DNA of 64,000 nucleotides from Anaerohalosphaeraceae bacterium (lineage in GTDB: Bacteria; Planctomycetota; Phycisphaerae; Sedimentisphaerales; Anaerohalosphaeraceae). The stretch is taken from assembly GCA_050309605.1 (NCBI GenBank), contig JBNRMN010000033.1, positions 192,001-256,000 on the forward strand, written 5' to 3'. The notes under the pieces are model-generated. The model did no database searches and was not told the origin of the DNA. It saw nothing but the letters and a program-made list of their open reading frames with translations. Both the position numbers and the translations under genes were made by a program. This document shows positions 7,986-12,199 of this stretch, piece by piece (positions within the stretch are counted from its first letter, which is position 1; each line of letters starts with the position of its first letter).

Positions 7986-8063
7986 GGTATTACCTCCTAA
8001 AATCGGATACCCGTATCGGATTCAGAACGAAAGCTATCCCGTTCTCACGATTTGCAGGTCCTT

Positions 8064-8092
8064 ATAGTAAACCCCGCACTCCGCTGATGCAA
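8064..8092 (-). promoter_or_regulatory. sigma70-type promoter for the TRAP operon
   Basis: TTGCAT-N17-TACTAT on the minus strand, followed by two hairpins in the 5' UTR. Confidence 0.55.
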
Positions 8093-8239
8093 GAAATAAT
8101 TCACGTCCGCAGTACAAGGGCGGGTTCATCCTTGACTTTTTCAGAGAAATGGCTGAAAGTAAAGGGCAGGTTCAGGTCGCCATACAAGTGATGTGGAGAA
8201 TACACTATGCGGGTACAGCCCCGAACGAGCGAGATCACA

Positions 8240-8668
8240 ATGAATGCAGAGGCCAGGTTTCCGACGCGAACGACGGTGCAGGCGTACACCATCCAGATCG
8301 TGCCGCGGTATGCCGAGACCGATCAGGCCGGCGTGGTGCACCATACGGTCTATCCGGTGTGGTTCGAGATGGGCCGCACGGAACTGCTGCGGGCCAACGG
8401 CCTGGCCTACAGCGATCTGGAAAAGGCGGGCATCTATTTTGTCGTGGCCGAGCTGGCCGTCAAATATCGCCGACCGGCCCTGTACGATGAGACGCTCGAT
8501 CTGATCACCGTCTGCACCCGCATCACGTCCGCCCGTGTGGAGCACACCTATACCCTCAAACGCCCCGCAACCGGCCTGATTTTGTGCGAAGGCACGTCGA
8601 TCCTGGCTTGTGTCGATGCCCAGGGCAAACCCCGCCGCATGCCCGACTTTATGTATCCGGCTGAATAA
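8240..8668 (+). CDS. Acyl-CoA thioesterase, YbgC/FadM hotdog family
   Basis: RYAETDQAGVVHHTVYPVWFEMGR motif; start uncertain (8207 or 8240). Confidence 0.9.
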   Translation: MNAEARFPTRTTVQAYTIQIVPRYAETDQAGVVHHTVYPVWFEMGRTELLRANGLAYSDLEKAGIYFVVAELAVKYRRPALYDETLDLITVCTRITSARVEHTYTLKRPATGLILCEGTSILACVDAQGKPRRMPDFMYPAE

Positions 8669-8866
8669 GACCGGAAGCGGCCTTGCACCGATTTTTCGCG
8701 GCGGACTGATCCTGAAAAAAGCGATTGCAGACGACCTCTGCCGAAAAAAAACTCAGCCACACTAAGAAAATATCCGCCAAAAGACCGATAAAAAACCTCT
8801 TTGTAAATCTTTTGTCAAGATTTTGAAAAAAAGTTAAATGACTCCCCTGTTATTCTTAATAACTCC

Positions 8867-8895
8867 TTGATATTTTCTTTGTAATCGTGTATATT
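8867..8895 (+). promoter_or_regulatory. sigma70-type promoter driving the small-ORF unit
   Basis: TTGATA-N17-TATATT in an AT-rich context. Confidence 0.7.
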
Positions 8896-8955
8896 AACCC
8901 TTGTAGCAATGAGGTTGAAAACTGAATAACAACAAGCAATCGTCTGGGGGTACAG

Positions 8956-9084
8956 ATGACCACGTTAAAAAACATAACCGAAATTCAATTGGCCGTGGAA
9001 GGCGGGCGGGGTCCGCCGGAAATACAACTGACCGATCGTCTCACGTCAATCAAGACCCAGAACCTGAATGCCCGAACCCACTGA
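8956..9084 (+). CDS. Small ORF A (42 aa) with RGPP motif: MTTLKNITEIQLAVEGGRGPPEIQLTDRLTSIKTQNLNARTH
   Basis: Manual translation; GGGGG 5 nt before the ATG; first ORF after the promoter. Confidence 0.5.
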   Translation: MTTLKNITEIQLAVEGGRGPPEIQLTDRLTSIKTQNLNARTH

Positions 9085-9100
9085 TAAAAGGAAAGTCAAA

Positions 9101-9184
9101 ATGCCAGAGACACGTGTTTATTGTCGGATTCGTCAGATGCCACCGGCAGCAGCGGTCAAAAACAAGGCCCCGCCGATAGAATAA
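9101..9184 (+). CDS. Small ORF B (27 aa) with KAPP motif: MPETRVYCRIRQMPPAAAVKNKAPPIE
   Basis: Manual translation; AAAGGA SD-like sequence upstream. Confidence 0.5.
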   Translation: MPETRVYCRIRQMPPAAAVKNKAPPIE

Positions 9185-9278
9185 ACGAAATGTTTTTGAG
9201 AAATTTTCGGCACGTCAGGCCGCTGTATTTTAAGTTTTATACGGTAAGCAATCGAAGTGATGATTTAAGGAATTCGTT

Positions 9279-9380
9279 ATGCCGCCGATTTTCGAAAACG
9301 ACCGAGTTATTACATTTTATCGGCCGTGCTGGGCTGCTCACGAACGCGGACCGCCGGGGGACACAAGAATGAAGCATTGA
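9279..9380 (+). CDS. Small ORF C (33 aa) with RGPP motif: MPPIFENDRVITFYRPCWAAHERGPPGDTRMKH
   Basis: Manual translation; TAAGGA SD-like sequence upstream. Confidence 0.5.
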   Translation: MPPIFENDRVITFYRPCWAAHERGPPGDTRMKH

Positions 9381-9490
9381 ATGAACCGCACTTATACGAT
9401 TATAATAACGCTCTTTGAATGACATCACATAGCCTGCACCGGATTTGGCCTTTTTTGCCTTCTCCTCCTCCGCTTCTGTCAGGTGCAGAC

Positions 9491-9539
9491 AGCACACAGC
9501 CGGCTCGGGTGCCTCCTTCCCGGGCCGGCGTGCTTTTTT
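9491..9539 (+). terminator. Intrinsic terminator with a CCUCCUU loop
   Basis: GCCGGCTCGGG-TGCCTCCTT-CCCGGGCCGGC stem-loop, extended by AGCAC/GTGCT, then TTTTTT. Confidence 0.8.
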
Positions 9540-9680
9540 ATAGTGTGCTCCGCGTCAATTCCGACATTATAACGGCTCTGCGGCAAGGGCGGCTTCAACG
9601 GTTGCGATGACTGCGAGTCCAAAGGCGTGAAGCGACAATAATAATCTTGAAATTTGGCCTGAAATTTTATCCCACCCTGA

Positions 9681-9823
9681 ACAACAGCGCGGCGGCGCAA
9701 GCCGCCCGATAGGGGATGCGGATAGATGGGGCGTTTTGTAAGTCGCGGCATTATCCGGCCGCTTGCGCGGCTCGGCTATTGTACGTGGTGTTATCCGGCT
9801 CACTTGCGCGGCTCGGCTATTGT
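9681..9823. repeat. REP-like family A: three ~32-bp copies (one inverted, two direct)
   Basis: ttatccggccgcttgcgcggctcggctattgt (9751-9782), a near-identical copy (9791-9823), and an inverted diverged copy (9681-9712) with a GCAA-loop hairpin. Confidence 0.8.
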
Positions 9824-9856
9824 GGGAGGGGGTATAAAACAAGAACAATTCGACTT

Positions 9857-10051
9857 GGCCTGAAGGGCCGAAAATGCCCTGAAAGGGCAATGATACCTTA
9901 GCCCAGCCCAGCGGGCTGGGTTGTGGGGTCACCGGTCGCCGGTCGCCCTGTAAGGGCAGGATAGTATATTGCTCTTTCAGAGCCAGGGGGTTCGTGGCCG
10001 ATATAACCCCAGGGCGTTGCCCTGGGCTGGGATATGCCGCCCCTTCGGGGC
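9857..10051. repeat. REP/BIME-like family B composite (GCCCTGAAAGGGC and CCCAGGGCGTTGCCCTGGG palindromes)
   Basis: Hairpins at 9857-9869, 9875-9889, 9902-9920, 9945-9957, 9971-9983, 10008-10026 and 10039-10051, arranged as two inverted halves. Confidence 0.8.
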
Positions 10052-10130
10052 GAAATGTGGAGCCGGCTATCGCCGGGGTGAAATGATACCATTCCGTTGC
10101 TGCGCGACCCCCCGCCTTGAAAAAAGAGGG

Positions 10131-10165
10131 AAAAAAAGGGCCTGACGCACGCTGCGCCAGACCCG
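10131..10165 (-). terminator. groEL intrinsic terminator
   Basis: Minus strand GGGTCTGGCGCA-GCG-TGCGTCAGGCCC followed by T7. Confidence 0.8.
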
Positions 10166-10196
10166 TAGGATACTGGGTTGACTGACAGGGGGCGGG

Positions 10197-11855
10197 TTAG
10201 TACATGCCTCCCATGCCGCCCATACCACCCATACCGCCCATACCGCCGCCGGGCGGCATGGCAGGGGCTTCTTTCTTTTCGGGGATTTCGCTGACGACCG
10301 CCTCGGTGGTCAGCAGCAGCGAGGCGATTGAAGCGCCATTCTGAAGCGCCGTGCGTTCGACCTTGGTCGGCACGATCACGCCGAACTTGACCATATCGCC
10401 GTATTCCTTGCGAAGGGCGTCGTAGCCGAAATTCTTCTCTTTGGACTCCAGAACCTTCTGGGCGACGATGGAGCCGTCCAGCCCGGCGTTGACCGCAATC
10501 TGTTTGATTGGAGCGACAATGGCACGACGCACAATATCGACGCCGACTTTTTCGTCGCCTTCGCACTTGATCTTGTCCAGCGCCGGCAGACACTTGAGCA
10601 TTGATACGCCGCCGCCCGGCAGAATCCCCTCTTCAACCGCGGCTCGACAGGCATGCAGGGCATCCTCGACGCGGGCCTTCTTTTCCTTCATCTCGGCCTC
10701 GGTGGCCGCACCGACTTTGATGACCGCCACGCCGCCGGCCAGTTTAGCCAGACGTTCCTGGAGCTTTTCAATGTCATATTCACTGGTCGAGGCGTCGATT
10801 TCCTTTTTGATCTGCTCGATTCGTCCCTTGATGTCGGCGGTCGAGCCGGCGCCTTCGACGATTGTGGTGGTGTCTTTGTCGATGGTGATGCGCTTGGCCT
10901 GGCCGAGCTGACTGAGCTGGACGTTTTCAAGCTGAATGCCCAAATCCTCGAAGATCGCCTGCCCGCCGGTCAGGATGGCGATATCCTGGAGCATCGCCTT
11001 GCGGCGGTCGCCAAAGCCCGGCGCCTTGACCGCACAGACCTGCAGCACGCCGCGCAGCTTGTTGACGACCAGCGTCGCCAGCGCTTCGCCTTCAATGTCT
11101 TCGGCAATAATCAGCAGCGGGCGTCCTTGTTTGGCCACCTGTTCCAGCACCGGCACCAGCGACTTGACGGCGCTGATTTTCTTTTCATGAATCAGCACAT
11201 ACGGCTTTTCCAGAACGACCGTCCGGTCTTCAGGCTGATTGATAAAGTGCGGGCTGAGGTATCCTTTGTCAAACTGCATCCCTTCGAGCAGATCCACGAC
11301 AGTCTCGAGCGACTGGCCTTCTTCGACGGTCATCACGCCGTCCTTGCCGACCTTGTCCATCGCCTCGGCCAGGGTCTTGCCGATCTCGGCATCCTGATTG
11401 GCCGAGCAGGTGGCCACCTGCTGAATCTGCTTGCTTGAATCGACCGGTATGCTCATCTTGGCCAGCTCATCGACCAGCGTCTCGACGGCCTTGTCGATCC
11501 CGCGTTTGACCTGCATCGGGTTGGCCCCGGCGGTGATGTTCTTGAGTCCCTCTTCGAAGATGGCCTCGGCCAGGATCGTGGCCGTAGTCGTCCCGTCGCC
11601 GGCGACGTTGCTGGTTTTGGAGGCCACTTCCTTGACCATCTGGGCGCCCATATTCTCATACGCGTCGGTCAATTCGATTTCTTTGGCCACCGTGACGCCG
11701 TCTTTGGTCACGGTCGGCGAGCCGAACGATTTTTCCAGAACGACATTCCGCCCGCAGGGGCCAAGCGTGATTTTGACCGCGCGGGCCAGTTTCCGCACGC
11801 CCTCGCGAATGGCGGTGCGGGCTTCAACATCGTATGCTATCTTTTTTGCTGCCAT
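10197..11855 (-). CDS. groEL: Chaperonin GroEL
   Basis: [20 protein letters not shown]-terminal GGM repeats; start at ATG 11855 (MAAKK). Confidence 0.99.
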
Positions 11856-11911
11856 ATTGTGCAATCTCCTGTTTTCTCAGTTATCAAATCCACATCGAAC
11901 CCGTCAGGCGA

Positions 11912-12199
11912 CTATTCAATAATCGCCATAATGTCCGATTCATCCATAATCAGGTATTCTTTGCCGTCGATCTTGACTTCCGTACCGGCATAGCTGGTAA
12001 ACAACACCTGCTGGTCTTTTTTGACCGAAACGGGGGCGCGCTGGCCGTCGTCAAGCATTCGACCATCACCGACCGCGATCACCTTGCCGCGCTGCGGTTT
12101 TTCTTTGGCGGTGTCGGGCAGCACGATGCCGCCGGCGGTCTTGCTCTCGGCCTCAACACGCTGAACGATCACTTTGTCAGCTAAGGGGCGAATCTTCAT
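11912..12199 (-). CDS. groES: Co-chaperonin GroES
   Basis: [10 protein letters not shown]...[18 protein letters not shown]. Confidence 0.99.

Follow-up and report, generated by a model that had tools for sequence, protein, structure and literature searches.

Three tandem mini-ORFs conserved in frame only up to Pro-Pro: a candidate arrest-peptide array without a target gene in an Anaerohalosphaeraceae bacterium

Introduction

What could three very short open reading frames (ORFs) be doing in a bacterial chromosome when each is conserved only as far as a pair of proline codons and no gene follows for them to regulate? The question is raised by a promoter-to-terminator unit at positions 8855-9539 (plus strand) of a 64,000-nucleotide (nt) stretch from an Anaerohalosphaeraceae bacterium (Planctomycetota, Phycisphaerae, Sedimentisphaerales; assembly GCA_050309605.1, contig JBNRMN010000033.1, positions 192,001 to 256,000 of the forward strand), here called the window, in whose coordinates positions are given. 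The unit contains three mini-ORFs (A, B and C), each led by a Shine-Dalgarno (SD) sequence. An initial annotation, made from the letters of the sequence alone, had described it as an array of stalling ORFs without a target gene and had suggested that it might act as a ribosome or EF-P sensor or sponge, or control the 3' RNA.

The Pro-Pro motifs point towards ribosome arrest. According to the available part of Fujiwara et al. (EMBO J 2025, PMC12992588), RGPP is the most robust arrest core in several peptide contexts, arrest by RAPP and RGPP sets in while the first Pro codon occupies the P site and the second the A site, the arginine is irreplaceable in ApcA, ApdA, ApdP and SecM, and both motifs are excluded from proteomes. 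The RAPP/RGPP-type set described there comprises ApdA, ApdP, ApcA and SecM-related peptides, CruR, and seven upstream ORFs of Streptomyces lividans.

We find that the three ORFs are conserved in frame up to Pro-Pro, that a non-coding element follows the Pro-Pro codons at a fixed distance in relatives, that no target gene accompanies the array, and that the 3' domain of the unit is itself conserved. The reading that we favour, with a probability of about 0.4, is that A and C, and in other genera B, serve as arrest-peptide mini-cistrons which affect the RNA that bears them in cis and gate a 3' domain resembling an anti-SD sequence.

Conservation as coding sequence up to Pro-Pro

ORF A (8946-9084 with its SD, plus strand) follows the SD GGGGG at 8946-8950 and runs for 42 codons (8956-9084) with RGPP at 9007-9018; its conserved part is the first 21 codons, ending ...LAVEGGRGPP. 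ORF B (9087-9184 with its SD, plus strand), preceded by the SD AAAGGAAAG, has 27 codons (9101-9184) and ends ...QMPPAAAVKNKAPP, the layout being QMPP (MPP at 9137-9145), eight residues, and KAPP (9164-9175). ORF C (9279-9380, plus strand; SD AAGGA) has 33 codons, with an N-terminal MPP and RGPP at 9345-9356, and its conserved part is the first 26 codons, MPP...FYRPCWAAHERGPP. The promoter, the three SD-led ORFs, their motifs and the CCG CCG codons that encode all three Pro-Pro pairs in the window are thus where the initial annotation had placed them. As a codon bias specific to the window, CCG CCG was not significant, CCGCCG making up 46% of the Pro-Pro dicodons of the genome.

In an alignment of six genomes of the genus, 54% of the columns of ORF A are invariant up to Pro-Pro and 6% after it; the corresponding values for ORF C are 54% and 9%, while ORF B up to Pro-Pro has 28%. 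Pairwise differences in ORF A at codon positions one, two and three number 695/580/1586 before Pro-Pro and 1577/1467/1547 after it, and those in ORF C before Pro-Pro 1354/1341/2835. An excess at the third position is seen only before Pro-Pro, and after it all three positions differ equally. In the same way, the synonymous share of codon differences is 0.51, 0.21 and 0.45 (A, B and C) before Pro-Pro and 0.07, 0.05 and 0.07 in the ten codons that follow. Conservation of the motif frame with synonymous changes, which had been proposed as a check on the annotation, is therefore borne out.

The same boundary is visible more widely. Of 30 loci with ORF C, 23 also have an ORF A and 19 an ORF B by our motif rules. 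The distance from ATG to Pro-Pro is 21 codons in 19/23 A modules, 24-26 in 18/19 B modules and 25-26 in 28/29 C modules, and an SD-like sequence precedes 23/23, 18/19 and 27/29 of them, respectively; the stop codon lies anywhere from 0 to 256 codons after Pro-Pro. In ORF C the R, P and P are invariant in 29 sequences, and R, G, P and P are kept while Arg is encoded by CGC, CGT, CGG, CGA or AGG and Gly by GGT, GGA, GGG or GGC. The second (A-site) Pro codon is CCG in every module (23/23 A, 19/19 B and 30/30 C); for the first, no codons but CCG and CCA are used, and ORF C has CCG CCG in 30/30 loci. CCG accounts for 57% of the Pro codons in the genome, in which tRNA-Pro genes with the anticodons GGG, CGG and UGG are all present. 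ORF B is more variable: its PP-x8-PP spacing is kept in 19/30 loci, and the motif at its end reads K[ASG]PP in the window's genus, RGPP in the genus g34 and RDPP, TGPP or LDPP elsewhere.

Judged by these comparisons, peptide-level selection on A, B and C ends at Pro-Pro. This pattern, conservation up to that point and freedom beyond it, is what one would expect of a nascent-chain arrest sequence and not of an ordinary small protein.

The motifs themselves are rare in this genome. Its 2218 long ORFs (1.03 million residues) contain no RGPP and a single RAPP, compared with 8 AGPP and 25 AAPP. Of 203 occurrences of R[GA]PP in 6.8 million six-frame codons, just 10 are in a short reading frame that opens with an ATG preceded by an SD-like sequence; this array and a second one, described below, account for 4 of the 10. 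The core R-[AG]-P-P is present in ORFs A and C of the window and in ORF B of g34; for the window's ORF B the suggestion that every ORF carries a RAPP-like arrest motif is harder to uphold, as KAPP is not a validated arrest core given that Arg is irreplaceable in ApcA, ApdA, ApdP and SecM. The RGPP sites are unlikely to make up the EF-P sensor suggested at the outset, since EF-P is reported, in the available part of PMC12992588, not to relieve arrest of the RAPP type.

The chains ahead of the arrest point comprise 21, 25 and 26 residues in A, B and C, too few to span the exit tunnel. Translation of the three ORFs shows no hydrophobic segment, and the ORFs lack the N-terminal signal or transmembrane segment that would serve force-dependent release in peptides of the Sec/YidC-monitoring class. 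Metal sensing through Cys and His of ORF C was considered and dropped: the Cys is nearly invariant, and the His position is occupied by H, Y, C, Q, K, D, R or N. As for the fourth and fifth ORFs that had been listed at 9381-9422 and 9419-9610, the open frames exist but are not conserved: they lie in sequence with 9% invariant columns, and the frame across the terminator differs among relatives.

An element at a fixed distance behind Pro-Pro

In relatives, the Pro-Pro codons of all three ORF types are followed by a purine, an A-rich box and then a U-run. An A occupies positions +8 to +10 after Pro-Pro in 70-90% of the modules. The first T-run of at least four starts 14-26 nt after Pro-Pro in 14/23 A, 17/19 B and 7/29 C modules, the background for such starts being 5.9% of 3429 positions, and in modules that have one the run begins at 17-23 nt. 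The element is not coding: runs that start at 17-20 nt are spread over all three frames, and the box is still there when an early stop codon precedes it. In the window it is found after ORF B (9176-9200, plus strand) as an A-rich box followed by T5 at 9193-9197, 17 nt after the Pro-Pro codons (0-based).

In six genomes of g34 a perfect terminator, GGCUCAUC-loop-GAUGAGCC-U6-9, stands directly behind ORF B, its 5' arm beginning at the last base of the second Pro codon.

Two other readings of the region behind Pro-Pro were rejected. An Hfq-type (ARN)n site with a U-tail has no partner, as Hfq (PF17209) gave no match in the 99.7% complete genome and did match in control genomes. A SecM-like relay, in which a stall would unmask the next SD, finds no conserved pairing, and the SD of ORF B is unpaired in the minimum free energy fold. 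Pairing between the purine boxes behind Pro-Pro and the CU tract of the 3' domain was noticed by eye only and involves sequences of low complexity; we do not claim it.

The 3' RNA domain

If ribosomes halt within the unit, what would they control? The part of the unit that is best conserved in the genus is its 3' 84 nt, with 73% invariant columns. This domain (9458-9539, plus strand) consists of a CU-rich tract, CCTTCTCCTCCTCCGCTTCT, at 9458-9477, a small hairpin at 9476-9492, and a terminator stem at 9492-9533 that is followed by U6 at 9534-9539. The stem folds with -28.1 kcal/mol, in agreement with the strong terminator of the initial annotation, although the simple promoter/terminator scan of the region did not list it. 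The terminator loop, GCCUCCUU, contains CCUCCUU, a sequence shared with the 3' end of the genome's own 16S rRNA, GGATCACCTCCTTTCT. The unit thus ends invariably in CCUUCUCCUCCUCC, the hairpin and a terminator with a CCUCCUU loop, tract and loop motif being invariant in six genomes. In g34 the arrays end in a small, CCUCC-bearing hairpin that displays (C)ACCUCCUCC, followed by a terminator.

Similar sequence combinations are rare. Clusters of at least three CCTCC within 90 nt occur 13 times in the genome; three of them precede a strong terminator, and one of these three is the present locus. A second lies in a free-standing small-RNA candidate (G000:C24:6640-6835; locus L128, about 340-535) with the same three-part design, in which a predicted promoter TTGATT-N17-TAAAAT leads to a CU-rich tract CCCUCCUCCUCCUUCU, a hairpin, and a terminator with the loop UUUCCUCCUU and U8. 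This candidate is present in 46/70 genomes of the family, most of which match over the 3' ~80-100 nt with 74-96% identity, and its terminator shows a compensatory change (CGGU..GCCG versus CGGG..CCCG). A Pro-Pro ORF upstream of it is absent from 19/20 loci, the remaining one having a single short PP-containing ORF 323 nt upstream. Neither this candidate nor the second array has an Rfam match.

When the 3' domain of the window is aligned with the free-standing candidate, 57/99 columns are identical, and 0/500 shuffles reach the score. The two resemble each other in design, common descent being unproven. A conserved, accessible seed and an intrinsic terminator are features of trans-acting small RNAs (sRNAs) that the domain shares, its targets being putative. 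The suggestion that the unit controls its 3' RNA has gained support from the conservation of the domain and from this resemblance. As a separate observation, the terminator U-runs of the arrays and of the free-standing small RNA are very often followed by (A)UGCGC, as in UUUUUUUUAUGCGC (examples at about 530-545 of L128 and in G053, G002, G006 and G074).

A second array

The same genome contains a second stand-alone array (G000:C63:109150-109540; locus L097, about 1350-1740), which adjoins a divergent hypF gene. It has two ORFs, one ending ..VKEAGRGPP and the other ..IPP-x8-RGPP, between a CTTAATA...TTGAAA promoter context and a terminator, and it too has no target gene, the downstream gene being convergent. 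In the hypF-side array of relatives from the genus g18, a start codon is followed directly by RGPP. This site lies ~150 nt after the Pro-Pro of the first ORF (L121 from G058 and L127 from G060), and its RGPP codons, GCGGGGGCC, serve as the first arm (5') of a long hairpin that closes with GGCC(U/C)CCGC and a U-run, so that the predicted terminator is built on the arrest codons themselves.

Promoter, genomic setting and absence of a target gene

The predicted promoter (8855-8895, plus strand) consists of an upstream CTTAATA motif, a -35 box TTGATA at 8867-8872, a spacer of 17 nt and a -10 box TATATT at 8890-8895. The two boxes match 10/12 consensus positions, in itself weak evidence: 3 kb of the region holds 3 promoter-like sites, and shuffled sequence 1.7 +/- 1.2. 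The block has 49% invariant columns in the six genomes, compared with 10% immediately upstream, and the combination CTTAATA...TTGAxA...-10 occurs at only two sites genome-wide, namely at this array and at the second one. Between ORFs B and C lies a conserved spacer, TATTTTAAGTTTTATACGGTAAGCAA..GATGATTTAAGGAA (9222-9278, plus strand; 36% invariant columns), that includes the SD of ORF C and may be an internal promoter or a 5' leader. The spacer behind ORF C (9357-9455, plus strand) is variable, with 9% invariant columns, and contains a promoter-like TTGAAT-18-TATAAT at 9377-9406.

The unit occupies a 1.5 kb gap (8669-10196) between a YbgC/FadM-family acyl-CoA thioesterase gene (8207-8668, plus strand; 153 residues; TIGR00051 at 70.8 bits, cutoff 68.7) and groEL with groES (10197-12199, minus strand), which are convergent to it. 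Directly downstream of the unit come its terminator, repeats and then the convergent groEL; a regulated or structural gene in the same direction, which known leaders have, is not found there. Among the 30 loci the downstream neighbour varies, being convergent here and in several relatives, and no downstream gene is conserved. Upstream, a thioesterase-type motif on the same strand is found in 20/30 loci and is absent in 7, the other 3 offering too short a stretch on that side. The array of G003 and G005 is located at another site with its promoter intact, which together with the varying neighbours argues that the unit is autonomous. Together with the in-frame conservation and the documented strength of RGPP as an arrest core, this leaves an array of putative stalling ORFs without a target gene as the leading reading.

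Searches for known features in the unit gave little. An Rfam 15 scan of 8000-11000 found no family at the gathering threshold within 8867-9539, so that a known RNA family was rejected; Pfam gave no match for any ORF in the unit; and no tRNA or transfer-messenger RNA is present in the region. A large structured RNA was likewise rejected (8903-9540: z = +1.19, with 17/20 shuffles folding at least as well).

The space between the unit and groEL contains high-copy repeats (9680-9830 and 10008-10052). The contig depth over 9674-9807 in metagenome runs is 100-200x that of the flanks, and internal joints there are variable; 10008-10052 (plus strand) matches the Rfam Acido-Lenti-1 RNA (43.1 bits, cutoff 37), with a weaker copy at 9875-9920 (minus strand).

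Distribution

A DNA search found the unit as a single copy in its own genome and in 5/6 other genomes of the genus (66-93% identity), the sixth being 77% complete. A profile of ORF C matches exactly once per genome in 34/70 genomes of the family labelled Anaerohalosphaeraceae (Phycisphaerae) and in 3/231 genomes from the rest of the order (f6 2/2, f3 1/3, f7 0/167, f5 0/26, f2 0/25, f8 0/7, f4 0/1). A degenerate DNA pattern of the ORF C core, run against a single genome of each GTDB species, yielded 19 loci, of which 18 are true arrays; the nineteenth, labelled Elusimicrobia, is a chance match within a longer frame. The 18 carry the labels Planctomycetota, Phycisphaerae, Sedimentisphaerales or Anaerohalosphaeraceae, as metagenome-assembled genomes, with a few Pirellulales, Planctomycetaceae and Planctomycetales. 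The ORF A profile matches in 45/70 genomes of the family (E <= 0.05); in a class-wide sample at E <= 1e-4 it matches its own genome and 14/28 other sampled members of the family, and 0/372 genomes across 23 other families of the class. The cassette thus appears to be lineage-specific and self-contained.

Its modules are separable, with predicted promoter-like sites between them. Genomes of g34 that have ORF C alone retain the B-C spacer block, and one of them has a predicted TTGGCG-18-TATAGT promoter. In the genus g2 a three-ORF array stands behind the thioesterase gene, its third peptide being a different one of 24-26 residues that ends GRGPP. We also note that at loci L036-L038 (from G051, G050 and G049) A and B are replaced, ~250-400 nt ahead of ORF C, by a tRNA-like gene that runs the other way, and that ORF C has retained the conserved block in front of it along with a predicted promoter.

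A possible mechanism

In the mechanism that we favour, the three mini-cistrons would be translated for the sake of the nascent chain, their sole selected product, which would measure 21-26 residues and end in Pro-Pro (RGPP in A and C). We infer that a ribosome arriving at RGPP would park there, with the first Pro codon in its P site and the second in its A site. As the peptides are too short to leave the tunnel, have no signal sequence and precede no gene, such a ribosome most likely acts on its own RNA, and we consider it probable, from the sequence features described, that stalled ribosomes here work on the RNA that carries them.

A ribosome with the first Pro codon in its P site covers about 9 nt past the A-site codon. 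The A-rich box and hairpin that begin at about +8 in relatives, with the U-run at +17 to +20, would thus mark the leading edge of the parked ribosome. With a hairpin and U-run, or a real terminator, at this edge, the ribosome could decide whether RNA polymerase stops or continues, and the unit would place three such checkpoints in series ahead of its 3' end. In this genus, the synthesis, exposure or stability of the 3' domain would then depend on how ribosomes handle the three ORFs.

The effect could have either sign. A parked ribosome may mask the 5' arm of the terminator, as the position of the arm at ORF B of g34 would allow, and so cause read-through. Or the hairpin may stay free while the ribosome is uncoupled from RNA polymerase, which would result in termination, as has been described for pyrL (in the available part of PMC5021804).

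A more specific version, which we regard as quite unlikely, holds that the unit produces a ribosome-arrest-gated small RNA. Each of the three different RGPP-type ORFs would hold a ribosome at the base of a terminator-like element, and together they would provide a three-step kinetic check of the coupling between translation and transcription, as a measure of translation capacity; RNAs that pass it would carry or expose the anti-SD mimic, CCUCCUCC and CCUCCUU, pair in trans with ribosome-binding sites and so feed back on initiation. If this were true, arrest peptides would be controlling an RNA regulator instead of a protein-coding gene.

Several observations weigh against gating in cis by arrested ribosomes. 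The geometry is compatible with either sign, as a hairpin at +8 just outside the ribosome favours termination and the g34 ORF B terminator, lying inside, favours read-through. The U-run of the window is found after ORF B only, ORFs A and C being without it, and most hairpins behind Pro-Pro are A/U-rich and too weak to score as terminators. ORF B of the window, with KAPP, lacks the arginine that is irreplaceable in tested arrest peptides. The CU-rich 3' domain is confined to two genera; in g2, g15 and g36 the array closes with a plain terminator. The 638-nt RNA is no more stably folded than shuffled versions of it. Finally, G049-G051 have an ORF C that stands by itself, A and B being found on a different contig of G049 and G050, and predicted promoter-like sequences lie between modules that also occur apart; each unit may therefore have a transcript of its own, and the logic of checkpoints in series would then fall away.

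Alternative explanations

The last point leads to the idea, raised as a sensor or sponge in the initial annotation, that the mini-ORFs are independent tiny transcription units, their order in tandem being a relic of duplication, and that the stalled complex is a sensor or sink of the translation state which is read out in trans. Its input could be ribosome availability, Pro-tRNA(CGG), Mg2+ or a stall-release factor. Promoter-like sites upstream of ORFs B and C in relatives, and after ORF C here, are in keeping with it, as are the separate occurrence of modules, the second array with the same promoter motif and again no target gene, and the constancy of the A-site CCG in all three ORF types alongside freely varying Gly and Arg codons. 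We nevertheless think it rather unlikely, as the internal promoters are consensus matches only, no component for the read-out is identifiable, a sink demands very high expression, and both the A-rich box and U-run at a fixed distance and the invariant 3' domain are left unexplained.

A further reading, also rather unlikely, is that parked ribosomes serve to stabilise or process the RNA, acting as a shield against nucleases; the CU-rich small RNA at the 3' end would then build up only while ribosomes sit on the ORFs. The stalled ribosome of erm leaders stabilises its mRNA in a comparable way. Three putative stall sites with strong SDs, placed ahead of the best-conserved part of the unit, its 3' domain, would suit such a role, as would the AU-rich, variable spacers between conserved blocks, and ORF C stays together with the CU-rich domain in g1 and g34 even where A and B are located elsewhere. 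Against this, there is no CU-rich domain to protect in the arrays of g2, g15 and g36, and the free-standing small RNA, built to the same plan, manages without such ORFs.

That the ORFs encode released, functional micropeptides of ~25-40 residues, with RGPP a mere part of their sequence, we consider improbable. Purifying selection at the peptide level, strong SDs and constant length would all be expected of micropeptides, but the conservation stops exactly at Pro-Pro in three unrelated peptides and again in the second array, the tails behind it range from none to hundreds of codons, RGPP is otherwise absent from the long ORFs of the genome, and Pfam recognises none of the peptides. A purely non-coding RNA or DNA element with accidental ORFs, to which the nucleotide-level conservation of the box behind Pro-Pro and of the 3' domain and a sub-threshold Rfam match on the terminator only (ctRNA_pGA1, 24.1 bits, cutoff 45) might point, is highly improbable in view of the third-codon periodicity and the synonymous substitutions that each of the three frames shows ahead of Pro-Pro, the conserved start codons and SDs, and a fold no better than that of shuffles.

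Comparison with known systems

The closest relatives in principle are the arrest peptides of the RAPP/RGPP type, with which the mini-ORFs share small size, a C-terminal R-G-P-P core, a conserved chain upstream of it and freedom downstream, and a motif that proteomes avoid. As far as the available part of PMC12992588 describes them, known members are mostly 100-300 residues long, carry a signal or transmembrane segment and act as sensors ahead of a co-directional regulated gene, whereas those described here have 21-26 residues and no signal, would be beyond the pull of Sec or YidC, stand three in a row and have no target gene. The word 'tandem' is absent from PMC12992588, and a literature search confined to sources outside subscription journals and supplements found no paper on tandem, target-less RGPP mini-ORFs, nor any leader-peptide or small-RNA regulation of this kind for Planctomycetes. 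New here are also the A-rich box and U-run behind Pro-Pro, the second array with two ORFs, and the 3' domain that resembles a free-standing small RNA.

If the arrest proposed here is real, nascent-chain arrest would also control RNAs, through transcription, stability or exposure of a seed, and the arrest repertoire would come to include unannotated ORFs of 21-26 codons, which surveys of predicted proteomes such as PMC12992588 may miss. The array would be a first tractable case for Planctomycetes, and its three peptides are natural, minimal RGPP arrest candidates for structural work.

The proposed control of transcription is reminiscent of attenuators. The mgtCBR leader of Salmonella reportedly contains proline-codon leader ORFs in tandem, mgtM and mgtP, and is said to work by ribosome-dependent attenuation. 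For pyrL, Elgamal et al. describe, in the available part of their paper, that a polyproline stall upstream of the terminator in the absence of EF-P leads to termination (PMC5021804). As far as these accounts go, the likeness lies in SD-led leader ORFs, of which there may be more than one in series, in Pro-Pro as the presumed slow step, and, if the proposal for the array holds, in the position of the ribosome relative to a hairpin and U-run as that which decides transcription. The mgtCBR and pyrL leaders govern downstream structural genes, however, whereas the array is followed by a terminator only; pyrL involves EF-P, to which RGPP arrest is reported to be refractory; and no alternative antiterminator pairing is evident in the minimum free energy fold of the array RNA.

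A third comparison concerns the fate of the RNA. Dual-function sRNAs in general combine a translated ORF with base-pairing in a single transcript. The rnTrpL RNA of Sinorhizobium meliloti is, by the available part of its description, a trans-acting sRNA derived from an attenuator and encoding the leader peptide peTrpL (PMC6614838). Like the array, it is a short transcript with a leader ORF, an intrinsic terminator and possible base-pairing in trans. It differs, as described there, in being located upstream of trpE(G) and in sensing Trp codons, whereas the array has three arrest-type ORFs and no biosynthetic gene, and its putative seed, through which it may act in trans, would be a CU tract resembling an anti-SD sequence.

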